The notes beneath the pieces are model-generated. The model worked only from the letters and a program-made list of their open reading frames with translations, was not told the origin of the DNA and did not search any database. 64,000 nt of DNA from assembly GCA_944389095.1 (NCBI GenBank), contig CALXLC010000010.1, positions 22,154 through 86,153 of the forward strand. The letters run 5' to 3'. Each line of letters opens with the position of its first letter. The first letter of the stretch is position 1. A program made the position numbers and the translations under genes. Of the stretch, positions 17,800-64,000 are shown in pieces. The DNA comes from an uncultured Alphaproteobacteria bacterium (lineage in GTDB: Bacteria; Pseudomonadota; Alphaproteobacteria; RF32; CAG-239).

Positions 17800-20700
17800 T
17801 TACCAGGGATCGTCATATCCCAGAGCCGGATCGTTCAACCGGTCACGATAAGACGAATCTCCGGAATTGTACCCGGCACCGCCGGTACTCCGTCCGGTTT
17901 TGGCATACCCCGAACGGAAATTGGCAATCTGGTCATACCCGGTATCAACCAGGTCGCTTTTCCACGACCAGTCGGGGTTAGACATGACGCGCCGTTCAAA
18001 ATAGCAGTAAACATTTGAGATTGCGGTCATTTCCTCGTTATAAACCGGAAACAGGTTCCACACGATTTTTCCGCGCAGACTGTTGGCCGTCGCGCTTCCC
18101 GCCACGTCGGTCAGGTAATCCTGATAATCGGAGCCGTGATACAAAAAGCCCATAATCGCATGCCAGCCCAAAAAGTCGCTGTTGCGGATGGTTCCCATAT
18201 TTCCGCTTGTGGAAGACGTCGAATTGTCACGCACGCCGCTGATGGTCGTGTTCAGCCAGGTATTGGTCTGGAAAGTCATCGGCATACCTTGTTCAAACTC
18301 ATGCGTATGCACACCCGAAGATCCGTCCGCCTCGGCAATAATCAAACGACCGGACGCCGGATCGCGGGGAGCCACAAAATAACTCTTAAACCGCTGAGCG
18401 ACTTCGGTTTCCGGAATTCCCGTCGGCGGCATGGCCACATAATAAGCTTCCGCCATTTTCCAGCGAATGGGATTAATGGTAATAACTTTGGAATAGCCCG
18501 GCGGACATTGGGGAGTCGGCACAAAACCGAGCCACGGCGTCGTAATACAGTCCATATCGCCGTTGCAGTCGCTTGGCTGATTTTCCACAACAATTGAATT
18601 TCCGCTCTGCCGAACCGTATAATCCTCCCAGCTGCGGCTGCCGCTGGTCGGCTCCTCATAAGTATTATCAATAACATAAATACCTTTATTGATAAAGTCG
18701 GGCAAAATATCGCTCAAACGCGCGCCGCCGCGGGTAGTCAGCTTAATATCGTGCATAACCGAGGTATATGCGGGATTAACCTGATAAGCGTCATACGGCT
18801 TAGTCGCGCCGGCCTCACGTTCATTGGCATCCGGTCCCGGAAATTCATAAGCCTGATTGGCCAGCAGCCGGTCTGCTTTAATATAGCCCGGAACATCCTG
18901 CTCACCTTTGTCGGCCTCCAAATCAGAACGATCCGACGTTCCGCCCGCCGGCAGCGAAATCATTCCTTCGCGCCGGATAAGCACGCCGTCATCCAACACG
19001 GTATTGGTAAAAGCTCCCGTACTGTCCGTCACGGACTTGTTGCGGGCATCATTGGCAAAAAGCATTTTGTCTTCGTCAATCACGATATTGTCGGAAACCG
19101 CCTTAATCAGCGTCGCGTCCATTTCAATATTTCCGGTTGTCATTTCCAAACTGGCCGTACTGCCGCCGCCGGCGCCGTAGCTATGCTCCAACAACAGGCT
19201 ATCTTGATTAACGTAAATCGAATTCGGATTCTCTGCACCGGTATTACGAATGGCAATTTGATTGCTTTTTAAATCAACGGTCTGCTTTCCGCCGTTGGCA
19301 CTCAGCCCGATTTCAGTACCGGTAATTTCCGCGCCGCCGGAATCCAACTCCACCTTGCCGCCGAGATCACCGCCGCCTTGTGCCGTCAAAACACCGGAAG
19401 ACAAAGCATCTAACGTTGAATCGGTCACTTTGACCCCGTTGGCGTCATCCAATTTAACAAACGCACCGCTGGCATCCGTACCGACCACCGCGCTTCCCAC
19501 ATACAATTTGGCTTCCGTATCGGAAATCGACAGTCTGTCACCCACCTGCATATTGTTAACGGCAATGTCGACGCTGGAATTATCGGCCAAAAAGTTATAA
19601 GTCCCGTCAGCCATCCGGCCACCGCCCAAAATACCGCGTGCGTAAATATTTTCGGCATCAAAATCACCGCCGATGCTCAAATCATTTTTAATATAAGCGT
19701 TATTCTCTACCAAAAGGCTGCCGTCCGAAGAGTTTGACTGCCCCACAACCAGACTGTAGTTATTGGTATCTCCCGAAAAACCGGAGGCGCCGCTGATTGT
19801 GCCGCCCTTGACATTGACGCCGGAGCTGATTTCAGCACCGCCTTCAACCGTCAGCTTGCCGCTGCCGTCATCGCCTTTTTTAATCTCGGTATCGCCGGTA
19901 ATTGTCGTCTTGCCCGTAATTGAGCTGTCTCCCGTCACGTCAATACCGCCTTCGGTAACCGTAACCTTACCGGCTGCCTTGATTTTATCCGTATCGTTAA
20001 CCAGCAGCAGGCTGTCGGCAATATTGGCGCTGCCTGCCGTCAGCAGATTCGAAATCGTTGCCGCGCCTTCCACGACCAGATTGGCCTCTTTTTGGGTTTC
20101 CCCTTCATCGGCACCGGTAATCAAAACCTCGCCGCTGTCGCTGTCGGCAATCAGGCGGTGAACCTCGCCGATGGAATTACCGCCCATATACAGATTAACC
20201 TGCATGGTGTTGTATTCAACATCGCCCATACTGTCATCACGAAACAAAACATGCTCCGTTCCGGCGCCGGAACTCGCGTTAACCGCATGAATGGAACTCG
20301 AGGCAATACTGCCGTTGGGAGCCGTCCCCAAATCATAGTCACCCAATGCGGCGGCCCATCCGCCCTGCACGCCGTTGGCAACATTATCTTCCACAATGGC
20401 GCCGTTGGCCCCAATCATGGATGCGATTTTGGAAGAACGGACAATCGACAAATCGTTTTTTATCGGCGCCAGCACCAACCCCGTTATCGACGCGTGTTCC
20501 TGAGGCGTACCCTCGTCAACCACACTTTTCTTATACGCCATCTTAAAAGCGGAAAACAATTTTGATTCGTCCAGATTAAACCCGTACGGCAGATACGGCT
20601 CAATATCTTCGGGCAAAACCTCCTGAATATCCGGACTGCCCGACATCGTAAAATCAACGTAATTATCCTTGATGTAGTCATCCAGAGCCTTTGACAGAGT

Positions 20701-20862
20701 ACGCATTTGCGCCGCGGCATTAATATCCTGCAGCTCGGTGGTCCTCTCCGCGGCCTTTTTATACAACACCGGCGTCACCATGGTTATCAGCCCGAGCATG
20801 GCCAGAGCCTCCACCATCATGCTGCCCTTCTGGGCCGATTTGTAATTAAAACGTTTCAACAT
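17800..20862 (-). CDS. Giant (1020 aa) TadE/TadG-like pseudopilin-like protein with Gly-rich repeats
   Basis: N-terminus KGSMMVEALAMLGLITMVTPVLY matches the TadE/prepilin leader (G then hydrophobic stretch with Glu at +5); remainder Gly/Ser/Asn/Asp-rich repetitive; GAGGAG RBS. Confidence 0.6.
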   Translation of the reverse strand: MLKRFNYKSAQKGSMMVEALAMLGLITMVTPVLYKKAAERTTELQDINAAAQMRTLSKALDDYIKDNYVDFTMSGSPDIQEVLPEDIEPYLPYGFNLDESKLFSAFKMAYKKSVVDEGTPQEHASITGLVLAPIKNDLSIVRSSKIASMIGANGAIVEDNVANGVQGGWAAALGDYDLGTAPNGSIASSSIHAVNASSGAGTEHVLFRDDSMGDVEYNTMQVNLYMGGNSIGEVHRLIADSDSGEVLITGADEGETQKEANLVVEGAATISNLLTAGSANIADSLLLVNDTDKIKAAGKVTVTEGGIDVTGDSSITGKTTITGDTEIKKGDDGSGKLTVEGGAEISSGVNVKGGTISGASGFSGDTNNYSLVVGQSNSSDGSLLVENNAYIKNDLSIGGDFDAENIYARGILGGGRMADGTYNFLADNSSVDIAVNNMQVGDRLSISDTEAKLYVGSAVVGTDASGAFVKLDDANGVKVTDSTLDALSSGVLTAQGGGDLGGKVELDSGGAEITGTEIGLSANGGKQTVDLKSNQIAIRNTGAENPNSIYVNQDSLLLEHSYGAGGGSTASLEMTTGNIEMDATLIKAVSDNIVIDEDKMLFANDARNKSVTDSTGAFTNTVLDDGVLIRREGMISLPAGGTSDRSDLEADKGEQDVPGYIKADRLLANQAYEFPGPDANEREAGATKPYDAYQVNPAYTSVMHDIKLTTRGGARLSDILPDFINKGIYVIDNTYEEPTSGSRSWEDYTVRQSGNSIVVENQPSDCNGDMDCITTPWLGFVPTPQCPPGYSKVITINPIRWKMAEAYYVAMPPTGIPETEVAQRFKSYFVAPRDPASGRLIIAEADGSSGVHTHEFEQGMPMTFQTNTWLNTTISGVRDNSTSSTSGNMGTIRNSDFLGWHAIMGFLYHGSDYQDYLTDVAGSATANSLRGKIVWNLFPVYNEEMTAISNVYCYFERRVMSNPDWSWKSDLVDTGYDQIANFRSGYAKTGRSTGGAGYNSGDSSYRDRLNDPALGYDDPW

Positions 20863-24606: not shown

Positions 24607-27159
24607 TTGAAGCGCACGGGCAGAAATATCCTGTATTTTGTTTTAGGCGGCCTTTGGCTGACGATTGCGGCGGCAAATGCGGAAGAACCTTCCGACATCA
24701 AAATAGAAAACCTGCCGCAGCCGGCACGAACCGGACAGGTTAACGTCACGACGGAACGCAGCCTGACAACTTTGTCGTCAATCGGCGCACAACAGGTCCT
24801 TCCCGCCACCAATCAAATCGCAAGCCTGAGTTTTTCTTGGAACACTCCCGTTAATCTGGCCGTCTTTCAACGTCAGAAAAAACTTTGGATTGTATTTGAC
24901 CACCGGCAGGCCATTGACGTCAAAGAACTCAAAAAAACAGCCGGCGATCTGGCCTCAAACATTGTGCAGCTGCCGCACCCGAATGCTGCCGTCATCCAGA
25001 TGGTTCCGGCCGAGGGCGTTCGTTATTCCGTTCGTAAAGAAGGATTGCTGTGGATTATGGACCTCTTCAGAAATGACCTCCCCAAGCGGCCGGTCAAAGA
25101 CGTTACCATCTACACACAGCAAGACAGCCTGCAACATGCCTATATGTTTATTCCGACTGAAAATTCGGGAAATATCGTCAACGTTATCGATCCCGATGTC
25201 GGTGATATCATCTCCGTTGCCCCGACCGCCGACATCGGCTACGGCGTCAACAATCCCTACCATTACCCCGAGTTTGATTTGCTGAACACGGAACAAGGCG
25301 TTGCCATGGCAATGAAAGCGCCTGATATAACAATCTCCAGAACCAACACCGGCCTGCTCATCAGAGCACCCGAAAGAGGCCTTAGCATATCCAAAGACTT
25401 AGACAATCTGCGCCGCAAAGAACTCTACAGCAAACGGGGAGAAACCCTATACGGCTTTGATTTTGAAGTTTCCCCCCAACTTTTGAATATGAATTTTACC
25501 GATGCCGTCAACCAGCTTAAGCAAGATATTTTGGCCGCCCCGCAAAACAGCAGAAACCAGGTGCGGCTTGAACTGGTCAAATACTATCTGGCCAAAGGCC
25601 TGGGTACCAATGCCCTGACTATGCTGGAACAGATGCTGCGCGCCAAACTTCCCGAAACGACCAGCGCCAAGTTTCATGCGCTGCTGGGAATTGCCAACTT
25701 TTTGGTTCGCCGTTATCCTGAAGCTGTCAAAGAATTTGAATATGGCAATCTTCCCGAAAACGATGACGCCGTATTTTGGCGCAGTTTGGCGCAAAGCGCT
25801 TACCAACACAAAGAAGAAAACAACGCCGTTTTATTTGCCTACCTGCCGCTGATTCGCGAATATCCTCAGGAAATCCGCGACCGCATTGCCGCTATCGGTG
25901 CGGCAACGGCCTTGCGTGCCGGAGATGATTTGGCCGCCCAAAATTTCATAGACATCTTGAAAAGAGATGACGGCAGATTAAAAAACCGGGACACCCAAAT
26001 CGATTACCTATCCGCCAAAAAAACCGAACTTCAGGGATACCCGCGCAACGCCATTCGGGAATACACCCGCATCGGCGAAATGGATGACCTCCGTTACTCG
26101 TCGCTGGCCCGTTATGACAATGCCGTCCTGCGGCAGCAAATCGGTACTTTGCCGCTCAAAGAAGCTATTGCGGAGTTGGAGCGGCTGCGCTTTGCCTGGA
26201 GCGAAAAGGATTTCAAATGGAATTTGCTCAACCGGCTGGCACAATACTATGAAAAAGATTTTGATTATTACAATGCCCTCAAAACAATGAAAGAATCCCT
26301 GATTCTGGCCGACCCTGCCCAAAAAGAAACAATGCTCCGAAAAATGGTCGGCCTGTTTGAAGACATCTTCATTGACAACCGGGGAGACAGCAAACTTTCT
26401 GCCGTAAAAGCCCTTGCCCTGTATAACGACTTTGAATGGCTCGGCCGCCTCAGTCCCCGCCATAACGAAATTACCATCAAACTGGCTGACCGGCTGGTCG
26501 CCGTAGATTTGTTGCCGCGGGCGGGAGACCTGTTGGAACAGGTATTGGCCGACACCTCAAAGCTCACACCGTTGGAACAGGCCAAAGTCGGCGCCAGAAT
26601 GGCCGTCATTCTGCTCTTTGACAACAAATATGACAGCGCACTCGAAATTCTGGAAGAAACCGAATCAGACAACCTTCCCTACCAAATTCAGGCACAGCGG
26701 CGCGTCATCAAAGCCCGAGCCCTGGCCAGCACCAACCGGGTAGACGAAGCTCTGGAACTTCTGGCCGAAGATACCGGTAAAAACGCCATTATGCTGAAAA
26801 GCGAAATCTACTGGAATGCCGGCCAGTGGAACAATGTGGCGGACACAATTAAATACCTGATAGAAAAACCCAAACCGGGACAAGAGCTCTCTCCCGAACA
26901 AATCGGTTATATACTGGATTGGGCGACTGCGCTGAAAAAATCCGGACGGGAAACAGTTTTGGTCAGACTTCGCAACAAGTTTAAACCTTATTTTGATAAA
27001 ACCAAATACAGCAGCACTTTTAATATCTTGACCAATCACCTGGAAACAGATAAGGTTGATTTAAAGGAAATTAATAATATAGTAAACGACGTACAAATGT
27101 ACAGCAACTTTACCAAAATTTATAATGAGTCGTTTAAGGAAGAATCCGACAATAAATGA
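24607..27159 (+). CDS. Large secreted TPR-repeat protein (850 aa) at the end of the flagellar block
   Basis: Signal peptide ([10 protein letters not shown]), multiple TPR-like helical repeats; TTG start. Confidence 0.55.
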
Positions 27160-36337: not shown

Positions 36338-37510
36338 GTGAGATTCTACGCGCGTTTTGAAAAAATTTTGCCTTTAATCGGCAACGGAATCATTCCGGCA
36401 ACAATATTTGCGGTTGCGCTGCTGAGTTTTTATGTCTGCGGAGCATTCTCAGCCGCCGCAGCTCAAACGCTGCACACGGTCTTCTTTCTTGTCTGCATCG
36501 GTTCACTGCTGGTCTTGTTGTATTTCAACCGGAGCAAACCGGCTTTTTTCCTGCTGGCCGCCTGCCTGAGCTATGTCTTGATTAATTTTCTGAAAAACAA
36601 ATACGGCACCGATTATCTGAGCGCCGCGGCCTATCAAAATCTTTGCTTCTTTCTGCCGTTAAACTTGCTGCTGTTTTACTTTATTCCCGAACGGCGGCTG
36701 TTAAAAAAAATCAACGTATACCTCCTGATTGCGATTTTTCTGCAATATGCTCTTGCCGAACAATTGTCCAACCGCGGATACGCCCTGAATTTTTATATGC
36801 AAAATCCGCTTGTTTTTGATATGACATTCTCCGGATTTGCTTTCTTCTGTCTGACATTTTTTATATTTCTGTTCCGGGCCTCCCTGAGCGGAAACATAAC
36901 CGACTACGCGGCCCTGTTTGCCTCTTTGTCTCTGTTTTTCGGTTTTGCCTGCTCATCGTCAGCCAGTGCCTTAACCGTTTTTTTTGCTGCGACCGCCGTT
37001 ATTTTATGCGTTTCACTGAGTCTCAGCCTCTATAACGAAACCTATCGCGACAGCCTGACCGGTCTGGCCGGACGCAACTCCTACATCATCCATGCCAAAG
37101 ATTTTCCGCTCAAATACTGCCTGGGCATTGTCAGCATTGATGACTTTGACAAGCTCGGCATCAATTTCGGCCGTCGCGCCCAAAACATTCTCACCAAACT
37201 GATTGCCGGCCAAATCACCGAACTGGAAGTGCCGGAAACCGTCTACCGTTACGGTAATGATGAATTTGTCATCATCTTCAAAAACCTTGATAAAAACGAG
37301 AGTTTCGAACGGCTGGAAGACATCCGCCGCGCCATCGCTTCGGCCCAATTCAAATTCAACCCCCGGCGCCGGCCGTTAAAACTGACCGTCTCGGCCTGCG
37401 TTGCAGAAAAAAAACGCAGCGATGCCAATTCCTTTGAAGTTTTGGTCCGGGCACGCAAGACCTTGGAAAAGACCCGCAGTTTCAGCCACAATGTTACATC
37501 AAAGGCTTAA
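36338..37510 (+). CDS. Integral-membrane protein with C-terminal degenerate GGDEF domain (GNDEF)
   Basis: ~7 TM helices, then DSLTGLAGRNSY ... RYGNDEFVIIF in place of RYGGDEF. Confidence 0.65.
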   Translation: MRFYARFEKILPLIGNGIIPATIFAVALLSFYVCGAFSAAAAQTLHTVFFLVCIGSLLVLLYFNRSKPAFFLLAACLSYVLINFLKNKYGTDYLSAAAYQNLCFFLPLNLLLFYFIPERRLLKKINVYLLIAIFLQYALAEQLSNRGYALNFYMQNPLVFDMTFSGFAFFCLTFFIFLFRASLSGNITDYAALFASLSLFFGFACSSSASALTVFFAATAVILCVSLSLSLYNETYRDSLTGLAGRNSYIIHAKDFPLKYCLGIVSIDDFDKLGINFGRRAQNILTKLIAGQITELEVPETVYRYGNDEFVIIFKNLDKNESFERLEDIRRAIASAQFKFNPRRRPLKLTVSACVAEKKRSDANSFEVLVRARKTLEKTRSFSHNVTSKA

Positions 37511-52101: not shown

Positions 52102-52524
52102 ATGGAAAATGCACATAAACAAATAATCTGGGATTCGATTGTCTGCCTGATTGTCGATGATGACAAATTCTCCCGCACTTTTATTAAAACGGCGCTGTAT
52201 CAAATCGGTATCAAAAACACCAAAGAAGCCAGCAGCACCGAAGAAGCCGCCGAACTTCTGCACAGTTTCAAAATTGACGTCATTCTGCTGGATCAGCAGA
52301 TTCCCGGCAAAAACGGCCTCGATTTTGCCAGAGAACTCAAAACCGGCAATATCGAAAACGGCAAAAACATTCCCATCATCATGGTTACGGTTGACACCAA
52401 GGAAAAAACCGTTTTGGATGCCAAAGCCCTCGGTATTCAGGAATACCTGGTCAAACCGATATCGCCGCTGGCCCTCAAAAAAAGAATCTGCACGGCTTTC
52501 GGCATAAAACAGGAACGCGTATAA
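52102..52524 (+). CDS. Single-domain response regulator (CheY-like receiver)
   Basis: DDD acidic pocket, phospho-acceptor Asp in VILLDQQ, conserved Lys near the C-terminus. Confidence 0.75.
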   Translation: MENAHKQIIWDSIVCLIVDDDKFSRTFIKTALYQIGIKNTKEASSTEEAAELLHSFKIDVILLDQQIPGKNGLDFARELKTGNIENGKNIPIIMVTVDTKEKTVLDAKALGIQEYLVKPISPLALKKRICTAFGIKQERV

Positions 52525-55093: not shown

Positions 55094-56389
55094 TCATCTC
55101 CGTTGAGAAAAAATAGTCCGCCGCGGCTGGGCATTCAGCATCCTCTGAATATAGCGCCCCTGATAAAGATTAATTCCCAGAGAATTTCCCACTTCTACCG
55201 CCTGCGGATCATCAATCCGGCACAAAATCATCTTGGCCCGCTCGGCCTTATTGACATAATCCATAAAATGCTTGTCTTCATGAATCACATCCATAAAAGA
55301 CGGATGCCAGATTATCTTAATCAAATCACAATTCAGATTTTGGCGGTTCAGATATTTCAGTTTGTCCACCGTAATTCCGTCAATGCAGATTTTATAGCCT
55401 CTGGCCTGAGCAAAGGCCTTCGCCAGCATAAAAGCCTTAATATCGCTGAAAATATCGGCCAACTGCAATTCCAGAATAACCGACGGTTTCATAAAAGTAT
55501 TGATATTATCGTCAAACTCCAGAAATTCATCGGAAAGGATGGTTGAAACATTAATATTTACACTAAAATTCCCGGCCAGAGAATTATCGTCATGGCGGCT
55601 GATAGTTTCCAAAACACGTTTATCCAAAGTTTCGCTTAAAGACAAAAACAGCCACGGATTCGCCGTCAAATCCACATCCGGTAGCAGCATATCGCGCAAA
55701 TCCGGTATTGCCACATAGACTTCCTCAAACACCCTCTGCGGCGCAGCCTTGCCGATAACCGCGCAAATGGCCTGCCGACGGATAAAGCTGGAAAAATCTG
55801 CAACAGCCAATATTTTCTGAACTTTTGCCAACATTTCCGGCGTCAAAACCCGGCGCAGCCTTTTGCCGGTAGAATTAAACACCGAAACTCCGGACGTCAA
55901 CTTTGCACCTTTTGCTGCCGAACTGCGTTGACTGCCGTCCTTTGCTTCATCGGAAGAAGTCGCCTGAAGCTGACTGCGAACCATAGCCCGGAAATCCGCG
56001 GCACTCTCTTTCAAATCAAAAAAGACGACCAGCCCGCCCTGCTCCAAATCATCAATATCTCGCACGGCAGGATCATCATGCAGCAAAAACCGGATTTTCA
56101 CCAGACAGGCCTTAACTTCATCATCAAAATTCCGGTTATAAAAAACCAAAACATCATCATTGGGAAGAGCAAAAATTTCGCCTTTTGATTTGCGGACAAC
56201 TTCTTCAAAAGTTTCCACAAAAACCTGACGCTGCAACAGCTTGGCGCCTTGTTCCTGCAATTTTCCGACTTTAAAACATAATACCTTGAAAAAAGCAATA
56301 TCTTTTTCGATTTTTTTCATATAATCGAAAATAACGGTATCCTGCCTGACCAGTGTATTTTCCGAACCTCTGATAAAAGAAATTCCCAT
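55094..56389 (-). CDS. Degenerate GGDEF-EAL tandem-domain protein (paralog 1, 431 aa; predicted non-catalytic)
   Basis: GGDEF position reads LPNDDVLVF; EAL-like C-terminus with FSVNINVST, KICIDGITVDK (vs DDFGTGYSS), GINLYQGRYIQR (vs G..aQGYlfsrP). Confidence 0.6.
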   Translation of the reverse strand: MGISFIRGSENTLVRQDTVIFDYMKKIEKDIAFFKVLCFKVGKLQEQGAKLLQRQVFVETFEEVVRKSKGEIFALPNDDVLVFYNRNFDDEVKACLVKIRFLLHDDPAVRDIDDLEQGGLVVFFDLKESAADFRAMVRSQLQATSSDEAKDGSQRSSAAKGAKLTSGVSVFNSTGKRLRRVLTPEMLAKVQKILAVADFSSFIRRQAICAVIGKAAPQRVFEEVYVAIPDLRDMLLPDVDLTANPWLFLSLSETLDKRVLETISRHDDNSLAGNFSVNINVSTILSDEFLEFDDNINTFMKPSVILELQLADIFSDIKAFMLAKAFAQARGYKICIDGITVDKLKYLNRQNLNCDLIKIIWHPSFMDVIHEDKHFMDYVNKAERAKMILCRIDDPQAVEVGNSLGINLYQGRYIQRMLNAQPRRTIFSQRR

Positions 56390-56392
56390 AAC

Positions 56393-57673
56393 CTAACCCA
56401 ATACCTTATCCAAACATTCCGGCTGCGAGCATTCGCGGCGCAATAACCCCGACAAAACCCTTTTCCTTTTCAAACACTCGACAACCTTACAATTTTTACC
56501 GTCCGGGCAGCCGGAACGGATAACCGCAGCCTCCAGAGCATCGATATACGGCCCCTGAAAAGTATCCATACCGTAGCCGACACCCCACCGCACCGCTTTT
56601 TCATCGGTACATTTGGCCAACACCACATTTTCCCGGCCCAGTCCGTCCACCACCTGACGCAGCTCTTCGTTTTGCGTATCATATTCCATCAGCGGTTCCC
56701 AGAAAATTTTAACCATATCAGGTTCCAGTCTTTTCACATTGAGCATGTGCAACATATCCGGAGACATCGCGTCAATCAAAAGTTTGTGTCCGCCGCTGTG
56801 TAACAGTTCTTTGGCCTCAAAATATGTGTTAAGACTGTTTAAAACATCCATAACCTGAACTTCGACAATAAGTTTTCTGTCATCGTGCAGAAAATTTTTT
56901 GCAAAATCCACAAATTCACGGGAAAAAATCGAGCTTAGATTCAAATTCAGGCTAACCTGATCGGGCCAAACCGTCAGCTCTGCGCCGCGAAAGGCCTCCA
57001 TGGTCTTCTTATCCAAAGCCTGGGTCAGATACAAAAACAACCATTTGTTTCCGGTCAGGTCGATACTGCGATTATACTTGCGGCTCAAATCCTTAACCGC
57101 CACAAAAAACTCCTGAAAAACCACCTCAAATTTCTGAGGCGGCGTAATCCGCATCACACTCTGATGTTTAACGATTTCCGCCAAATCAATATTATCCAGA
57201 TGATCAATAACATCCGTAACCTGCCCTGCTTCCAGAGGCGTACCGGGAAAAACATGTTGAACGTCAGGAGCCCCGTTTTCAACCATATTTTCAATAATCC
57301 GGTAAAGGCGGACAAAATCCTCCGGAAAGACGTAAATATGAGCAAATTCATCTGCGCTTTCCGCCAACAGCAGCGGATCGCTTGACAAGCCCTGGCGGAT
57401 TTTCCCGACTGCGTTATCCACCATTTCGGGATTGATGTTTTTGCCGAGCAGCGCAAAATCGTCATTGCTGAGAACCGAAAGCATCCCCTCGCTGGCACCG
57501 ACCAAATCGTCAAACATTTTGGCCATGACTTTAACAAACGCCGGATGACGGTTTTTGGGTTTCAACTTGGAAACGCTGACATACAGCACCGAATAGCCCT
57601 GAGAATTCCGGGCAATTCGGTTCAGAGCGTCCAGTAAAAACTTTTCATTTGCAAAATTTCCGGCATAGACCAT
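56393..57673 (-). CDS. Degenerate GGDEF-EAL tandem-domain protein (paralog 2, 426 aa; predicted non-catalytic)
   Basis: GGDEF position reads LSNDDFALL; EAL-like C-terminus with LSLNLNLSS, KLLIDAMSPD, GMDTFQGPYI; collinear with paralog 1. Confidence 0.6.
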   Translation of the reverse strand: MVYAGNFANEKFLLDALNRIARNSQGYSVLYVSVSKLKPKNRHPAFVKVMAKMFDDLVGASEGMLSVLSNDDFALLGKNINPEMVDNAVGKIRQGLSSDPLLLAESADEFAHIYVFPEDFVRLYRIIENMVENGAPDVQHVFPGTPLEAGQVTDVIDHLDNIDLAEIVKHQSVMRITPPQKFEVVFQEFFVAVKDLSRKYNRSIDLTGNKWLFLYLTQALDKKTMEAFRGAELTVWPDQVSLNLNLSSIFSREFVDFAKNFLHDDRKLIVEVQVMDVLNSLNTYFEAKELLHSGGHKLLIDAMSPDMLHMLNVKRLEPDMVKIFWEPLMEYDTQNEELRQVVDGLGRENVVLAKCTDEKAVRWGVGYGMDTFQGPYIDALEAAVIRSGCPDGKNCKVVECLKRKRVLSGLLRRECSQPECLDKVLG

Positions 57674-57866
57674 CTGTTCATAAACCTTAACAGCAAAAAC
57701 ATCTGAACTATATAATAACCATGCTTTACCCCTTTAGCAAGCAAATTACCGCAATTGTCCTTCCCAAAATTAAGCCGGCCGCCATTACCGAAAATCACTA
57801 TTGCCTTTTTGAAACGAAATTTATATAATTTTTTATTATAATTATTTTTAAGCAAAGTGAGGACAG

Positions 57867-58109
57867 ATGGCATCAACAATCAAAGTCTGCATGGGAAGTT
57901 CCTGTTTTGCCCGCGGCAACGCCAAAAATCTACAATTAATTCAAAAATATCTGGCGGAAAACGGGCTTGAAGCCGAAGTCGAACTGACCGGCCTGCGTTG
58001 CTGCGACAAGTGCTCCAAGGGTCCCAACCTGACCATTGACGGTGTTGAATATAATAATATTGACACCGGAACTCTGCTTGACATTCTGGAAAAACACTTC
58101 AAAAAATAA
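57867..58109 (+). CDS. Thioredoxin-like [2Fe-2S] ferredoxin (NuoE/HydC-like small protein, 80 aa)
   Basis: Cys pattern C-x4-C ... CC-x2-C (VCMGSSCFARG ... CCDKCSKGP). Confidence 0.65.
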   Translation: MASTIKVCMGSSCFARGNAKNLQLIQKYLAENGLEAEVELTGLRCCDKCSKGPNLTIDGVEYNNIDTGTLLDILEKHFKK

Positions 58110-58148
58110 ACCTTTCGGCTCAGCATCTGCAATCATGGAATAACAATC

Positions 58149-59912
58149 ATGTCAAACCGCGATTTTCCCCTCTATACCGTCAAAACAGACTGTCAGGACT
58201 GTTACAAATGCGTCCGCCGTTGTCCTGTCAAGGCCATTAAAATAGAAGACAGTTCGGCCATGATTGTCACGGATCTCTGCATTGCCTGCGGTATTTGCTA
58301 CAAAGTCTGCCCGGCCAAGGCCAAACAAATGCGCAATGATCTTCCCCGCGCCAAATTTCTGGTCAAATCAGGCAAAGAAATATATATTTCTCTGGCGCCT
58401 TCCTGGGTAACCGAATTCCCCGAATACTCGGCGGAACAACTGATTGCGGCCATCCGCCGGCTGGGCATCCGCGGTGTCAGCGAAACGGCTCTCGGCGCCG
58501 AAGAAGTTTCCGCCGAAACCGCCCGGATTTTGGACAAGGCCGATTCTGGACTGTTTATCTCCACGGCGTGCCCGACCGTCGTCGAATACGTCGAAAAATA
58601 CCTGCCCGAACTCACGCCCAATCTTGTCGGCGTCAGTTCTCCCCTTTTGGCGCACTGCCGCCTGCTTAAAGAAGAATACGGCGCCGGCATCGAGACCATT
58701 TTTGTCGGCCCCTGTATTGCCAAAAAACTGGAAGCCGACCGCCATCCCGAGCTGTTAAGCCTGAGCCTCAGCTTTGCAGACTTGCGGCAGTGGCTGAAAG
58801 ACGAAGACATTGACCCCGCATCACTCAAGCCCGGCGTATTTGACGTATTTGTTCCCCGCCGAGCCAAAGAAGGAGCCGCCTACCCGATAGAAGGCGGAAT
58901 GATTGAAACGCTCAAACCCTACCCTTCCGCAAAAAAAGCTTACCTCATGCAGCTGACCGGCATTTATAACATTGAGCGGGAACTCGAAAACCTTCGAAAT
59001 ACGGCCTTCAAGCAACCTGTTTTTATTGAAGCGCTGGCCTGCCCCGGCGGCTGTATCAACGGTCCCTGTACAACCGACAGACAATCCGGTCTGGATAAAC
59101 GAATGGAAGTTCTCCGCAATACCGAATTTGACGACAATGCCGGTAAACGCACGCCTGCCCATGACATCCGCCTCAATTATGCTTCCGATACCGTCGTCGA
59201 ACCCGAATTTTCCGAAAGCGACATCAAAAAGGTTCTTGCAAAAATCGGAAAATATACGCAGGAAGACGAACTCAACTGCGGCGGCTGCGGCTATGACACC
59301 TGCCGCAACTTTGCCCGCGCCCTGCTTGAAGGCAAAGCTGAACCGGAAATGTGCGTTTCTCACATGAAACAACAGGCCCAGCGCAAAGCCAATGCGCTGA
59401 TTCGCTGTATTCCTTCGCCGATAGTCATTGCCGATGCCAAACTGAACATTATGGAATATAATGACGAATTCCGCGATGCCTTTTGGAACGAGGAAGAACA
59501 TGCGGATATTTATGATTATGAGAATCTCCGCGGCGCCAACCTGCGAGACTTTATCAATTTTACCAACCTTTTTTCCGCCTCCCTGGATTTGGAACAGGAT
59601 ATTCGCCGCGAACATATCCGTCAGGATGACCGTGTATTCGACGTTGTGGTCTTCAATATAGATAAAAAACAAAGCGTCGGCGGCATCATTGAAGACGTGA
59701 CCAATGTTGAAATGCACAAAGAACAAATTGCCGCTAAAGCCAAAGAGGTTATTCACAAAAATCTGGCAACGGTCCAGCAAATAGCCTGTACGTTGGGCGA
59801 ACACATGGCCGAAACCGAGGTACTGCTCCGGTCCATCGCCAAAGATTACTCCTCCGAACAGGAACCGTCCGGACTGACTATCCGTACCAACTCGGCCAAA
59901 AGAGAGTACTGA
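58149..59912 (+). CDS. hydS: Sensory-type [FeFe]-hydrogenase homologue with C-terminal PAS domain (HydS-like)
   Basis: Two CxxCxxCxxxCP ferredoxin motifs; H-domain motifs L1 ISTACPTV (TSCCP with first Cys replaced by Ala), L2 GPCIAKKLE, L3 EALACPGGCINGP; then PAS-like ~120 aa. Confidence 0.75.
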   Translation: MSNRDFPLYTVKTDCQDCYKCVRRCPVKAIKIEDSSAMIVTDLCIACGICYKVCPAKAKQMRNDLPRAKFLVKSGKEIYISLAPSWVTEFPEYSAEQLIAAIRRLGIRGVSETALGAEEVSAETARILDKADSGLFISTACPTVVEYVEKYLPELTPNLVGVSSPLLAHCRLLKEEYGAGIETIFVGPCIAKKLEADRHPELLSLSLSFADLRQWLKDEDIDPASLKPGVFDVFVPRRAKEGAAYPIEGGMIETLKPYPSAKKAYLMQLTGIYNIERELENLRNTAFKQPVFIEALACPGGCINGPCTTDRQSGLDKRMEVLRNTEFDDNAGKRTPAHDIRLNYASDTVVEPEFSESDIKKVLAKIGKYTQEDELNCGGCGYDTCRNFARALLEGKAEPEMCVSHMKQQAQRKANALIRCIPSPIVIADAKLNIMEYNDEFRDAFWNEEEHADIYDYENLRGANLRDFINFTNLFSASLDLEQDIRREHIRQDDRVFDVVVFNIDKKQSVGGIIEDVTNVEMHKEQIAAKAKEVIHKNLATVQQIACTLGEHMAETEVLLRSIAKDYSSEQEPSGLTIRTNSAKREY

Positions 59913-59914
59913 GC

Positions 59915-61090
59915 ATGAACAGTTCGCTTTTTATTGAAATCGGCAGTGCCCAGCAGCAAAAATATGGTGAAGACTGCTACGGCGACACGATTTATTCAAA
60001 AAAAATTCCGGAAGAGCAGCGAATTATCTCGATTCTCTCGGACGGGCTGGGCAGCGGCGTTAAAGCCAACATCTTGTCCTCCATGACCACGCGTATGGCC
60101 ATGAAGTTCGTAGAAAGCCACATGGAACTGTTGCATTCCTCCGAAGTAATGATGGACGCTTTGCCGGTTTGCCAGATTCGCAAAATAAGTTATGCCACTT
60201 TTTCAATTGTTGACAGTGAACTGGAGGGCAAAACCCGTATTTTTGAAATGGACAATCCGTCCTTTATGCTGATTCGCGACAACAAAGCGCTCAATGTCCG
60301 CTACCGCGAACTCTCCTCTGCCAAGTGGAAAGACCGTACCATTAATGTTTCTCAGGTCACCAATCAGGAAGAAGACCGTATCATCTTAATTTCCGACGGC
60401 GTCAGCCAGGCGGGACTGGGCAACCCCAAATACCCGCTCGGCTGGCAACGACAGGGCTGTCTGGATTTCGCCCTGCAGCAAATTCGCAAAAAGCCGCATA
60501 TTTCCGCGCACGATTTGGCGCATGACATTGTCAACGAGGCTTTGAACAAAGAGGTGGACGGCAAAGCAGGCGACGACATCAGCTGCGTCGTACTTTATTT
60601 TCGCAAACCGCGAAAACTTCTGGTTTTAACGGGCCCGCCGTTTGATGAAGACAAAGACCGCGAATTTGCCGAGCTTGTTTCCGATTATGACGGAAAAATT
60701 GCCATCTGCGGCGGAACCACAGCCAACATCATTGAGCGGGAACTTTGCCTCAAATGTGAAATTGACAAAACCTCGTTTGACGAAAAAATTCCGATGGCAT
60801 CGACCATGGAAGGCGTCGATTTGGTGACCGAAGGCATTTTAACCTTGACGGAAGTTTATCGTATGCTAAAAGAAGGTATCGACACGCCGAAACAAAATGC
60901 TGCCGTCAGGCTGACAAACCTGCTTTTGGGCAGCGACAAGATTGATTTTGTGGTCGGCACCAAAATCAACGTGGCGCATCAGGACCCCAATCTTCCGATG
61001 GAGTTAGAGATTCGCCGCAACATTGTTAAAAAAATATTCAGAATTTTGCAGGATAAATACCTCAAAGAAATCAGCGTCAGATATATTTAG
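59915..61090 (+). CDS. PP2C/SpoIIE-family Ser/Thr protein phosphatase
   Basis: PPM-type metal-binding blocks (ILSDGLGSG, ILISDGVSQ, GDDISCVVL); 2-nt gap after hydS. Confidence 0.75.
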   Translation: MNSSLFIEIGSAQQQKYGEDCYGDTIYSKKIPEEQRIISILSDGLGSGVKANILSSMTTRMAMKFVESHMELLHSSEVMMDALPVCQIRKISYATFSIVDSELEGKTRIFEMDNPSFMLIRDNKALNVRYRELSSAKWKDRTINVSQVTNQEEDRIILISDGVSQAGLGNPKYPLGWQRQGCLDFALQQIRKKPHISAHDLAHDIVNEALNKEVDGKAGDDISCVVLYFRKPRKLLVLTGPPFDEDKDREFAELVSDYDGKIAICGGTTANIIERELCLKCEIDKTSFDEKIPMASTMEGVDLVTEGILTLTEVYRMLKEGIDTPKQNAAVRLTNLLLGSDKIDFVVGTKINVAHQDPNLPMELEIRRNIVKKIFRILQDKYLKEISVRYI

Positions 61091-61104
61091 AAAAGGAACG
61101 AACC

Positions 61105-61377
61105 ATGGAAAAGATAAAAGTAAAAATTTGTGTCGGAACTTCCTGCTTTGTCATGGGAGCGGCTCAGATTCAAACTCTGGAATTCAATGCCCCGGCCGAT
61201 ATTGCCGACAAAATCGAAATTCTTGAAGAGCGGTGCATGAACCTCTGCAAAGAACTTCATACAAAATACAACCGCGGCCCCTTCGTCCGTGTCAATGAAG
61301 AATTGATTGAAGAGGCAACCTACGAAAAAGTTGTTGCAAAAATTCGCGAAGTATTGCAAAAACAATCCTGCAAATAA
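61105..61377 (+). CDS. Thioredoxin-like [2Fe-2S] ferredoxin paralog (90 aa)
   Basis: VKICVGTSCFVMG ... CMNLCKE; same fold signature as 57867..58109. Confidence 0.6.
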   Translation: MEKIKVKICVGTSCFVMGAAQIQTLEFNAPADIADKIEILEERCMNLCKELHTKYNRGPFVRVNEELIEEATYEKVVAKIREVLQKQSCK

Positions 61378-61472
61378 AATTTAATAATCAATAATAAAAA
61401 CTACGCGATGTCGCCGTTTTTTGTTAAACAAAGAGTATCGGCGCCCGCAGTTCCGAAGGAATAAACAAAAAA

Positions 61473-62933
61473 ATGCTTATACCCAAAAACAATGCCAACC
61501 TGATGCGGACCAAAATACTGATAAAGCTGGTCGAAAGTTATCTGCACGACAAGTTTGACAACGCGGACCGCATTCCGCTCGATCTCCGGCCCAAAGACGG
61601 TCCGTCCAGCCGATGCTGCGTTTATAAAGACCGCGCGGTTTTAAAATACCGCTGCATGGCAGGGCTCGGACATTGTCCGGAAGAAGAAACCGATGAGTTA
61701 ATCAGCCTCAAAGAATACGGCAAACAGGCGCTTGAGCGCACCCATGCCGCCAAAAACAAACTGTCGGTTATTGATATTGCCTGCTCGGCCTGCGTAAAAT
61801 CGCAATACGTCATTACGGATGTCTGCCGCGGCTGCTTTGCCCAACCTTGCCGGCTTAATTGTCCCAAAGAGGCAATTTCCATCATCAACGGTCGCGCTCA
61901 CATTGACCCGGAAAAATGCGTCAACTGCGGCAAATGTTACGAAGTATGCCCGTATCATTCGGTTGTCAAAATTCCCGTTCCCTGTGAGGAAGCCTGTCCG
62001 GTCGGAGCCATCACCAAAGATGAAAAAGGCAAAGAACACATTGATACCGAAAAATGCATTTCCTGCGGAAAATGTCTGGCTTCATGCCCGTTTGGCGCAA
62101 TTGTCGAGCGGTCGCAGATTATTGACGTTCTCCGTGAAATCAAAGAAACCGATCACCGGGTCGTTGCCATGTTGGCTCCGGCGATTCTCGGACAATTTCC
62201 CGGCTCTGTCAACAATCTGGTGGGTGCTCTGAAACAGGTCGGATTCAGCGACGTTATTGAAGTTGCCGTCGGCGCGGACATCACCACGCAAAAAGAAGCC
62301 GCCGAATTTATCGAAAGAATGGAGCAGGGACAAAACTTTATGACCACCTCCTGCTGCCCGGCATACTTCCGTGCCGCACAGGTTCACATGCCGGAAGTTG
62401 CGCCGCATGTTTCTTCAACCAAAACGCCGATGTATTACACGGCTGAACTGGTCAAAAAAGAAGATCCAGGCTGCATTGCCGTATTCGTCGGCCCCTGCCT
62501 CGCCAAACGCGCCGAGGCCGAATACGATCCCAACGTAGACTATGTGCTGACTTTTGAAGAATTAGGTGCCATTCTGGTGGCTTCGGGCATCAATGTTGAC
62601 GAATGTCCCGAAGAGCCGTTCAGCAAAATATCCCATGCCCAGGGACGGCAATTTCCTGTCACCGGCGGTGTTGCCGGTGCCGTTGCCAGCCTGATTGGCG
62701 ATAAAGTTGAAATCCGCACCGAAAAGATTGACGGCCTGACCAAAGAAAGTATCAAGCTGCTCAAGCGTTATGCCGCCAAAGGTTCAGAAAACAACATGCT
62801 GGAAGTTATGTGCTGCGAAGGCGGCTGTGTTTCCGGCCCCGGTTGTATAGCTTTGTCCAAGAAAGCTGCCCGGGCTGTTGACGCTTATGCGCAAACCGGC
62901 GAGCAACTGACGCCAGAGACCAAAATCGGATAG
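61473..62933 (+). CDS. hydA: Monomeric catalytic [FeFe]-hydrogenase (ferredoxin-dependent type)
   Basis: N-terminal Cys clusters including two CxxCxxCxxxCP motifs; intact H-cluster motifs L1 TTSCCPAY, L2 GPCLAKRAE, L3 EVMCCEGGCVSGPG. Confidence 0.85.
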   Translation: MLIPKNNANLMRTKILIKLVESYLHDKFDNADRIPLDLRPKDGPSSRCCVYKDRAVLKYRCMAGLGHCPEEETDELISLKEYGKQALERTHAAKNKLSVIDIACSACVKSQYVITDVCRGCFAQPCRLNCPKEAISIINGRAHIDPEKCVNCGKCYEVCPYHSVVKIPVPCEEACPVGAITKDEKGKEHIDTEKCISCGKCLASCPFGAIVERSQIIDVLREIKETDHRVVAMLAPAILGQFPGSVNNLVGALKQVGFSDVIEVAVGADITTQKEAAEFIERMEQGQNFMTTSCCPAYFRAAQVHMPEVAPHVSSTKTPMYYTAELVKKEDPGCIAVFVGPCLAKRAEAEYDPNVDYVLTFEELGAILVASGINVDECPEEPFSKISHAQGRQFPVTGGVAGAVASLIGDKVEIRTEKIDGLTKESIKLLKRYAAKGSENNMLEVMCCEGGCVSGPGCIALSKKAARAVDAYAQTGEQLTPETKIG

Positions 62934-62943
62934 TCAAAAAAAT

Positions 62944-62982
62944 AAAAATCCCGGAAGTTGCAAAAACTTCCGGGATTTTTTA
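62944..62982 (+). terminator. Rho-independent terminator after hydA
   Basis: aaaaatcccggaagttgcaaaaacttccgggattttt. Confidence 0.65.
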
Positions 62983-63099: not shown

Positions 63100-64000
63100 T
63101 TAATATTTAACACAACTGTCACCAGACAATGAGATATAAGTTCCGTTGTGGCAGGAGACAAGGCTGTATCTCGTTCCTCCGCTGGCAACCGAGCAGTCAG
63201 GACCTATAATTTGACACTCTTTGCAATAGCCGTTGGCAGGGCAAGAACGTAATGTATAAAAGCATGTATTGGTACAACTCTTCTTAACGCAACTGGTACC
63301 CGACTGTTCATATCCGGAGTTGCAGGTCCAGGCCGCACATTTGCTCGGGCAGTCGCTGTAGTAACTCGAGCAGGTGGCATTGGACGGAACACTGACCGCC
63401 GTTCTGTTATCGCAGGGATCCGGATTCTTCGACACACAGCTTCCGCTGATACAATCTTCATCACTCGAACATTTATAGCTGCCGCAAGTGTTATAATAGG
63501 TTGTACCGTTTCTGACACAAGAATCAGAACCGACATTCCGACAAACACCCCGGCAATATCCCTCGCTGAGAGTATAGGTACAAGTATTCTCAGCAACGCA
63601 ACTGCTTCCGGATTTTTTATATCCCGAGTTACAGGACCAGGCCGAACATTTGCTCGGGCAGCTGCTGTAATAGTTTGAGCAGAAGGCGTTAGCCGGAACA
63701 CTGACAGCCGTCACACTGTCGCAAGGATCTTCGGTTTTACACAAATAACAGGTTCCCGAAGTTGCGCCGCAAGAACATTCTTTAGGCGCCGTAGCCGTAT
63801 AACCGTTGGAGCAAGACGTGCTGTATCCGCTCGGACAATAATAGGTATGACTGTGCGACGGTGCGGAATCACACTTATACCAGGTTTTTCCGGTGCAATT
63901 ATCATAACAACTGCTTGCCCCGTAAGTACAAGACGACGAAGACGAGTAGTTATATCCCGAACAATTACTGGTACAAGCCGGTTCTTCTTCACAGGCCGTG
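63100..64000 (-). CDS. Secreted cysteine-rich tandem-repeat protein (5' end beyond window)
   Basis: ~90-aa repeats of DPCD.(T/R)TAVSVP.NA.CS.YYS.CPSKC.AW.CNSGY..SG.SCV; the reading frame stays open upstream of the TTG at ~63743 to the window edge. Confidence 0.6.
   Translation of the reverse strand, partial: TACEEEPACTSNCSGYNYSSSSSCTYGASSCYDNCTGKTWYKCDSAPSHSHTYYCPSGYSTSCSNGYTATAPKECSCGATSGTCYLCKTEDPCDSVTAVSVPANAFCSNYYSSCPSKCSAWSCNSGYKKSGSSCVAENTCTYTLSEGYCRGVCRNVGSDSCVRNGTTYYNTCGSYKCSSDEDCISGSCVSKNPDPCDNRTAVSVPSNATCSSYYSDCPSKCAAWTCNSGYEQSGTSCVKKSCTNTCFYTLRSCPANGYCKECQIIGPDCSVASGGTRYSLVSCHNGTYISLSGDSCVKY

Follow-up and report, generated by a model that had tools for sequence, protein, structure and literature searches.

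The window analysed here is a 64 000-nucleotide stretch of DNA from an uncultured alphaproteobacterium (contig CALXLC010000010.1), and its region 57867–62982 contains five + strand open reading frames (ORFs), referred to as g1–g5, which all run in one direction and occupy the positions given in an earlier, sequence-only description of this DNA (the initial annotation). We interpret them, with a probability of about 65%, as an hfs-type operon in which a group C (phosphatase-linked) sensor module is joined to a group B fermentative hydrogenase, giving H2-gated control through a PP2C phosphatase. The predicted products are a small thioredoxin-like [2Fe–2S] protein (g1, 80 aa; 57867–58109), a sensory-type (group C) [FeFe] hydrogenase, HydS/HfsB (g2, 587 aa; 58149–59912), a PP2C (SpoIIE/RsbU-type) Ser/Thr phosphatase in the HfsC position (g3, 391 aa; 59915–61090), a second small thioredoxin-like [2Fe–2S] protein (g4, 90 aa; 61105–61377) and a group B 'monomeric' [FeFe] hydrogenase in the HfsD/HydA2 position (g5, 486 aa; 61473–62933). 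The order of small protein, PAS hydrogenase, phosphatase and group B hydrogenase is that of hfsABCD, with g4 as an extra gene.

A search of 1.84 billion representative proteins with g2 returned 832 clusters at E < 1e-30, and most of the 150 best matches align from end to end, C-terminal region included; the column counts given here for g2 come from a 114-sequence alignment. The protein begins with a 2×[4Fe–4S] ferredoxin-like domain (residues 12–58; 58182–58322, + strand) that is matched by Fer4, Fer4_10 and Fer4_21 and whose cysteines (C15, C18, C21, C25, C44, C47, C50 and C54) are invariant or nearly so. The H-cluster domain (residues 76–306; 58374–59066, + strand) matches Fe_hyd_lg_C with 154 bits, and the H-cluster ligands C141, C189, C298 and C302 are present in 113–114 of 114 sequences. 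In the L1 motif, S-T-A-C-P, the proton-relay cysteine is replaced by Ala140, a position that is Ala in 91 of the 114 relatives and Cys in only seven. Between the H-domain and the PAS fold lies a PF04060 'FeS' domain with a four-cysteine Fe–S cluster site (residues 375–403; 59271–59357, + strand; 44.2 bits), the cysteines of which (C377, C380, C385 and C402) are found in all 114 sequences; the initial annotation had the H-domain and the PAS domain right but overlooked this conserved element. A divergent PAS fold (residues ∼421–516; 59409–59696, + strand) is seen in the predicted structure, and it is followed by conserved C-terminal helices (residues 518–568; 59700–59852, + strand) with the consensus ...KNLxTVQxIAxLLGENAAETE..., in which Q543, A546, L549, G550, E551 and L560 show a conservation of 90% or more. 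These helices have a low predicted local distance difference test score (pLDDT 45–60) in the monomer model, and we regard them as a candidate docking or output segment.

Among the NCBIfam models, g2 scores 181 bits for the B1 model and 99 bits for the group A model, both below the cut-off; NCBIfam has no group C model. The features by which group C is described are all present, namely the four H-cluster cysteine ligands, the loss of the proton-relay cysteine and a C-terminal PAS domain. Loss of this cysteine has been tied to slow turnover and a sensory role, and together with the PAS domain it characterizes the group C enzymes TmHydS, TamHydS, RaHydS and TsHfsB, which are putative sensors (PMC8924675). 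Since the H-cluster ligands are intact while the proton-relay cysteine has become alanine, g2 is probably a sensory-type group C [FeFe] hydrogenase that senses H2, and the intact ligands, Ala140 and the modelled PAS fold all agree with its original description as a sensory hydrogenase with a C-terminal PAS domain. A PP2C-type Ser/Thr phosphatase gene adjoins g2, as expected for subgroup C3. C3 is the 'phosphatase-linked' subgroup of HydDB, a designation that agrees with the papers cited here, and g2 is likened to it by description and not by the HydDB classifier.

The second hydrogenase, g5, matches the model TIGR04105 ('monomeric [FeFe] hydrogenase, B1') with 535.9 bits against a cut-off of 450, over model positions 3–459 of 462, and Fe_hyd_lg_C with 204 bits, so that the profile check proposed at the outset for the H-domains came out positive for g2 and g5 alike. 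Its translation reads TSCCP at L1, including the proton-relay cysteine, and also shows the motifs GPCLAKRAE and EVMCCEGGCVSGP; a member of its 90% cluster carries the NCBI name 'monomeric [FeFe] hydrogenase [Alphaproteobacteria bacterium]'. Because TIGR04105 is passed over its full length, we assign g5 to group B and not to the prototypical group A HydA, and as judged by these matches it is a bona fide group B hydrogenase. The earlier label 'catalytic HydA' is thus borne out by the catalytic motif TSCCP but not as regards a group A-type enzyme. We propose that g5 would be the catalytic, H2-evolving enzyme of the operon; ferredoxin-dependent H2 evolution has been shown for gut group B enzymes (PMC12578642), not for g5 itself.

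The two small proteins were recognized initially as [2Fe–2S] proteins, and this identification stands. g1 matches PF01257 with 32.3 bits (cut-off 24.8), a match confined to the cluster-binding C-terminal portion of the NuoE/HydC model, and its cysteines C8, C13, C45 and C49 are kept in 64–65 of 65 homologues. The match of g4 (23.3 bits) is slightly under the same cut-off; the CxxxxC...CxxxC pattern is present, and C9, C14, C44 and C48 occur in 47 of 47 homologues. With PF01257 and four cysteines as the defining features we count both as thioredoxin-like [2Fe–2S] proteins, g4 being just below the profile threshold. They are distinct paralogues with 26% identity.

Classification of g3 as a PP2C phosphatase, also part of the initial annotation, is supported by a SpoIIE/PP2C match of 38.2 bits against a Pfam cut-off of 25 and by intact metal-binding motifs in the catalytic domain (residues 5–230; 59927–60604, + strand). 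Gly23-Asp24, Asp43-Gly44-x-Gly46, Asp161-Gly162 and Asp220-Asp221 are invariant in alignments of 42 and 51 sequences, and the PP2C fold with its conserved metal-binding aspartates places g3 among the PPM/PP2C phosphatases of the SpoIIE–RsbU type. The remainder of the protein is an α/β C-terminal domain (residues 234–391; 60614–61087, + strand) with the motifs TGPP, CGGTTA, VTEG and AHQDP, which is as conserved as the PP2C domain. This domain matches no Pfam family, its profile gives only chance-level matches to PDB sequences (E > 0.4), and a Foldseek search of g3 against the PDB returned PP2C matches only and none for the C-terminal domain. CGGTTA forms a glycine-rich loop, and there is a weak fold resemblance to the nucleotide-binding subdomains of MopB/NuoG proteins.

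The genes are closely packed, with gaps of 2–40 nt among g1–g4 and the start codon of g3 only 2 nt past the stop codon of g2. A consensus scan found a σ70-type promoter match (TTGCCT–17 nt–TATAAT; 57801–57829, + strand; 10 of 12 consensus positions) ∼38 nt 5′ of the g1 start codon. Four species of the clade share the −35 element TTGC(C/T/G)T and the −10 element TATA(A/C)T in the same register, within a spacer that has otherwise diverged, and we infer that this match acts as a promoter. At the other end, a bidirectional intrinsic terminator hairpin (62944–62980) starts 10 nt past the g5 stop codon; it has a 16 bp stem with A and U tracts on either side and a ΔG of −23.7 kcal/mol (z = −8.1), and none of 200 shuffled sequences was as stable. 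The 95 nt g4–g5 spacer contains no significant structure (z = −1.4), and an Rfam scan of 52–64 kb gave only a tRNA and noise, with no c-di-GMP riboswitch or other Rfam element. As one promoter match and one terminator flank them, g1–g5 are probably co-transcribed; the ORF coordinates and the hairpin statistics agree with the initial annotation, which had described five co-oriented genes ending in a strong terminator.

A family-profile scan of 185 579 species genomes yielded at least 525 loci; the analysis used the 80 best (numbered L below), and Thermoanaerobacterium is not represented in this set. Only two of the 80 belong to the clade of the window (74–76% identity); the others are at 36–50%. 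The nearest relatives outside the clade (44–50% identity) are spread over at least 12 other lineages. The 80 loci include Planctomycetota, Hydrogenedentes, Lentisphaeria/Victivallales, Gastranaerophilales (Melainabacteria), Fibrobacter, Elusimicrobia, Margulisiibacteriota, Acidobacteriota, Desulfobacterota, Cloacimonetes, Spirochaetes and Bacteroidales, together with a second alphaproteobacterial lineage (L031 and L037). Clostridiales contribute a single locus among these best 80, which does not support the term 'Firmicutes-style' that was first applied to the module: the term reflects the organisms of the first studies and not the source of the module.

The g1–g2–g3 core is the most constant part of these loci. 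Wherever the sequence extends far enough (72 of 72 loci, across at least 12 phylum-level lineages), the gene directly 3′ of HydS encodes a PP2C, and the two reading frames often abut or overlap; a g1 homologue lies directly 5′ of HydS in 67 of 78 loci. Of 60 loci, 38 have a group B hydrogenase gene, and in 37 of these a g4 homologue stands in front of it. About a third of the loci have the core without a group B gene, either beside HydAB-type enzymes or alone. In ∼12 loci a NuoF-like HydB and a 670-residue group A-type HydA stand beside the core instead (counts from the best hit per ORF and Pfam); no g4 homologue was detected in most of these HydAB-type loci, where the C-terminus of HydA carries the same domain in fused form. 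In a Cloacimonetes metagenome-assembled genome (MAG; L047, 1654–5571), for example, the N-terminus of HydB and the C-terminus of HydA each have a fused truncated PF01257 domain. This pattern, in which g1 accompanies HydS, g4 accompanies the group B enzyme and fused copies occur elsewhere, suggests that g1 and g4 are dedicated [2Fe–2S] subunits. We propose that g1, in the HfsA position, is an electron-transfer partner or subunit of HydS and that g4 has the same role for the group B enzyme. With a small [2Fe–2S] partner for each hydrogenase, the group B enzyme, although termed 'monomeric', may turn out to be a heterodimer. The core is also found in tandem, as HydS–PP2C followed by Fdx–HydS′–PP2C′, in a Labilibaculum MAG (L066, 9986–16348), where the second HydS is far more divergent (E = 2e-77 versus 6e-145).

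Recurring neighbours of the core are metabolic and regulatory. Rex lies upstream on the same strand in 15 loci (L084 and 14 others), AdhE lies upstream in eight Melainabacteria loci (L016, L018–L020 and other Gastranaerophilales), and a radical-SAM protein and HydF occur in seven and five loci, respectively. The Rex and AdhE neighbours agree with the hfsB–adhE regulatory link of Thermoanaerobacterium (PMC5707799).

The closest published counterpart is hfsABCD of Thermoanaerobacterium saccharolyticum and T. thermosaccharolyticum, which encodes HfsA, the PAS hydrogenase HfsB (group C), the Ser phosphatase HfsC and the ferredoxin-linked HfsD (group B) (PMC5707799, PMC11837493, PMC8924675). The gene order is the same as in the window, a likeness drawn from description and not from sequence comparison, with the equivalence of HfsA and g1 based on position only. 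Neither hfsABCD as published (four genes) nor the window module has a kinase gene; the window module differs in the extra g4 before the group B enzyme and in its Gram-negative gut alphaproteobacterial host. In Thermoanaerobacterium, adhE expression and hydrogenase activity are both higher once hfsB is deleted (PMC5707799), a phenotype that argues for regulation (PMC5707799, PMC11837493, PMC8924675). For Ruminococcus albus, Zheng et al. (2014, as cited in PMC5707799) proposed that HydS senses H2 and passes the signal through its PAS domain to a neighbouring Ser/Thr kinase. As outlined in the secondary accounts, the HydS–HydA2 unit of R. albus 7 places a PAS-bearing putative H2 sensor beside a ferredoxin-dependent hydrogenase that it may control (PMC5707799, PMC11837493), which is the situation found here; unlike the unit so described, the window module has no kinase, and none recurs in the 80 related loci. 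The initial analogy with hfsABC(D) and hydS–hydA2 is therefore sound in that gene content and order match the published descriptions.

Sensory and group B genes are also found near one another elsewhere: in Vallitalea guaymasensis the HydDB group C3 and group B genes peg.96 and peg.98 are one gene apart (PMC6163223), and in Elusimicrobium minutum a sensory HydS, described as 'dimeric', is upstream of the group B HydA2 (bioRxiv 10.1101/765248). The relatives include L024, an Elusimicrobia HydS locus on a 2.1 kb contig that ends within the PP2C gene. The biochemically studied sensory hydrogenases are TmHydS of Thermotoga maritima and TamHydS of Thermoanaerobacter mathranii, to which g2 is likened by description and not by sequence; no solved group C hydrogenase structure is present in the PDB copy examined. 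The PAS–PP2C phosphatases RsbP of Bacillus subtilis and Rv1364c of Mycobacterium tuberculosis (a PAS–RsbU–RsbW–RsbV fusion) offer a further parallel, except that the window module splits PAS and PP2C between two proteins, has a unique C-terminal domain on the PP2C protein and showed no kinase or STAS partners in its vicinity. Thus, the module is the known combination of a group C (phosphatase-linked) and a group B hydrogenase, and differs from it in the host lineage and the explicit second [2Fe–2S] gene; since the arrangement is already known, and in many bacterial phyla, the window offers an unexceptional case of it in a host that has been little studied.

In the mechanism that we favour, H2 would bind the H-cluster of HydS (g2) and shift its redox state, with electrons exchanged through the accessory clusters and g1 acting as partner. 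The redox state of the PF04060 cluster would be read by the neighbouring PAS domain and the C-terminal helices, which would modulate a bound PP2C (g3); this PAS-to-phosphatase step has precedent in solved PAS–PP2C proteins such as Rv1364c. g3 would then dephosphorylate a phosphoprotein encoded elsewhere in the genome, and the result would be a tuned expression or activity of the ferredoxin-oxidizing, H2-evolving g4 + g5 and of alternative reductant sinks when H2 accumulates.

Partners for such a pathway were sought in the window with Pfam on 48 ORFs, which include all non-overlapping ORFs of at least 150 aa except UppP, MutY and an M23 peptidase, and by tblastn with HydF, radical-SAM and Rex queries. 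Neither approach found HydE/F/G, a STAS protein, an RsbW-type kinase or Rex in the 64 kb window, in keeping with the initial annotation, which had noted no partner kinase, STAS component or HydEFG there. A 4.6 kb contig with an exact copy of g2, and up to 10 kb of flanking sequence for g5 and for a 73%-identical relative on a 1.89 Mb contig, likewise lacked maturase and kinase genes. Partner switching of the RsbU/RsbV/RsbW type is not indicated, as no STAS protein or HATPase kinase was found in the window, in the same-species 10 kb flanks or among the conserved neighbours, although a partner may be encoded farther away, and neither a Ser/Thr kinase nor a STAS protein is a recurring neighbour in the 80 related loci. 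A speculative and rather unlikely extension is that the Fdx–HydS–PP2C core works without a dedicated kinase or STAS protein and that the C-terminal domain of g3 binds a metabolite or docks on a metabolic enzyme or global regulator. If true, this would make the core an H2-gated post-translational fermentation switch in more than a dozen phyla, these gut Alphaproteobacteria included.

Several points weigh against an H2-gated phosphatase pathway. The C3 label of g2 derives from literature description and not from HydDB classifier output, and its PAS domain was assigned from a predicted structure and not by sequence thresholds. Neither HydE, HydF nor HydG turned up in the 64 kb window or the adjoining 10 kb (same species), and no substrate, kinase or STAS partner was found in the window, in the same-species 10 kb flanks or as a conserved gene near the 80 loci. 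Even in Firmicutes the sensory role is termed 'putative' (PMC8924675). The absence of maturases says little, since their genes are adjacent in only 5–7 of the 80 loci and are thus usually unlinked to the module.

The signal might also be something other than H2. If g2 sensed the intracellular redox state (the ferredoxin pool), its H-cluster would be one more redox centre and PAS–PP2C would report over-reduction, an idea suggested by the three accessory Fe–S clusters of g2 and its dedicated [2Fe–2S] partner, by the frequent position of HydS beside AdhE and Rex, an NADH/NAD+ sensor, and by a published suggestion that the PAS domain may respond to redox potential (PMC11837493). A generic redox sensor would not, however, need a costly H-cluster, the ligands of which are retained almost without exception, and the idea overlaps with H2 sensing because H2 and ferredoxin equilibrate through hydrogenase. 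We consider it a minor possibility.

The same gene order was originally viewed as a single 'Hfs hydrogenase', and the five proteins could accordingly form one multi-subunit catalytic enzyme with HydS and the [2Fe–2S] proteins as electron-transfer subunits of the group B hydrogenase. The tight operon, with the start/stop overlaps seen in many relatives, and the nearly constant pairing of g4 with g5 would suit such a complex, as would the lower H2 production of Thermoanaerobacterium after deletion of the whole hfs operon (PMC5707799, PMC11837493). We nevertheless judge it improbable: the occurrence of the core without a group B gene in roughly one locus out of three, the alanine in place of the proton-relay cysteine in 91 of 114 family members and a PP2C with conserved catalytic residues, which has no role in an electron-transfer complex, all speak for separate functions, and in Thermoanaerobacterium deletion of hfsB increases hydrogenase activity, while hfsD alone restores the phenotype (PMC5707799, PMC11837493).

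Divergent from the module, on the − strand at 55094–57673, are two paralogous EAL-like proteins of 431 and 426 aa, which had been annotated as a degenerate GGDEF–EAL pair and suggested as a possible output. Against an EAL cut-off of 31.3 bits, one scores above (33.4) and the other below (28.1). The two share 26% identity along their full length, and the C-terminal half of each is EAL-like but degenerate. Neither has a Pfam GGDEF match, and of the earlier description degenerate EAL-like paralogues, with weak EAL matches, are what remains. By eye, SNDDF and PNDDV stand where GGDEF might be expected, and the DDFGTG motif usual in EAL domains is missing. One paralogue has a weak NCBIfam match to CsrD, a degenerate GGDEF–EAL protein (E = 0.0011), and a phmmer search of an EAL-like protein against the PDB gave no match. 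A 417-residue HisKA–HATPase_c–REC gene lies between the pair and g1 in L002–L004 (8317–9570, − strand) and L006 (8327–9580, − strand); neither the window nor L005 has it, the spacer there being only ∼200 bp.

An output through these paralogues, in sister species together with the hybrid histidine kinase–receiver, would link H2 to c-di-GMP-type or two-component signalling. The divergent pair is syntenic with the module in every clade genome examined (L002–L006 and L085–L086), and the kinase gene is inserted in four of the loci as described, but synteny among close relatives is expected from descent alone and none of the 79 loci of other lineages has the pair. With EAL matches near or below threshold, no GGDEF domain detected, the hybrid kinase missing from the window and L005, and no c-di-GMP riboswitch or other Rfam element present, such an output is very unlikely. 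As their synteny is confined to this clade, we treat the EAL-like genes as context and not as part of the module.

Comparison with two sister species gave nonsynonymous divergence (pN) of 0.08–0.19 against synonymous divergence (pS) of 0.56–0.82 (saturated) for all five genes, which are, on this measure, all under purifying selection. That the module is a non-functional relic in a host without HydEFG maturases, as the lack of hydE, hydF and hydG in the 64 kb window and the same-species 10 kb downstream might suggest, is hardly credible given these ratios, the intact ligands of all clusters, the commonly unlinked maturase genes noted above and an operon kept across species that are 73–100% identical, including streamlined genomes of 1.9 Mb.

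The host was correctly described as alphaproteobacterial: exact or 90%-cluster copies of the window proteins are named 'Alphaproteobacteria bacterium' by NCBI, and relatives of g2 at 73% identity bear the names 'Azospirillum sp.' or 'Alphaproteobacteria'. The window otherwise carries housekeeping genes, among them the ATP synthase a, b and b′ genes, DciA and a FliL–FliM–DUF6468 cluster, which we take to be typical of Alphaproteobacteria. We found nothing specific in the literature on hydrogenases in gut Alphaproteobacteria of the RF32/CAG-239 type.

Horizontal acquisition of the module, likewise suggested at first, is plausible as to origin but not as a recent event. In a neighbour-joining HydS tree, calculated without support values, the window clade branches deeply and on its own, close to sequences of Planctomycetota, Lentisphaerae and Hydrogenedentes, and the second alphaproteobacterial lineage nests among gut Melainabacteria, a placement which suggests separate acquisitions. 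The G + C content (0.494 versus 0.474), the G + C content at third codon positions and the tetranucleotide composition show no anomaly that would signal a recent transfer. All five proteins are roughly equidistant (40–50% identity) from every other lineage, and no donor can be named. The operon is best explained as an old, fully ameliorated resident of an uncultured gut alphaproteobacterial lineage with a small genome (∼1.9 Mb).

Several other genes of the window were noted in passing. Past the terminator, on the − strand at 63100–63744, is a cysteine-rich protein with internal repeats (DPCD..TAVSVP.NA.CS.YYS.CPSKC.AW.CNSGY) and no significant family match; among three strains, the gene called at this position codes for 456 aa in the first and 565 aa in the second and is missing from the third (L085, 11629–12999; L086, 11628–13325; L087). 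Five large ORFs of 642, 917, 1272, 1020 and 850 aa (8–1936, 2454–5207 and 6400–10218, + strand; 17800–20862, − strand; 24607–27159, + strand) and four smaller ones nearby (222–266 aa) have no Pfam match at E ≤ 0.001. A GGDEF-domain protein (36338–37510, + strand; 37.7 bits) and a stand-alone receiver-domain protein (52102–52524, + strand; 85 bits) could not be linked to the hydrogenase module.

The constant pairing of HydS with one particular PP2C, the extra conserved domain of that PP2C, the lack of a kinase or substrate gene alongside and the separate [2Fe–2S] partners refine a known system and do not define a new one; the module adds a new host lineage and not a new mechanism. The substrate of the PP2C phosphatase and its unannotated C-terminal domain are family-wide questions that the module shares with thousands of loci. 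Group B [FeFe] hydrogenases have been reported as the main H2 producers of the human gut, with the sensory group C flagged as uncharacterised (PMC12578642). An abundant uncultured lineage of gut Alphaproteobacteria that carries a complete sensor–phosphatase–producer operon is therefore a candidate fermentative H2 producer.

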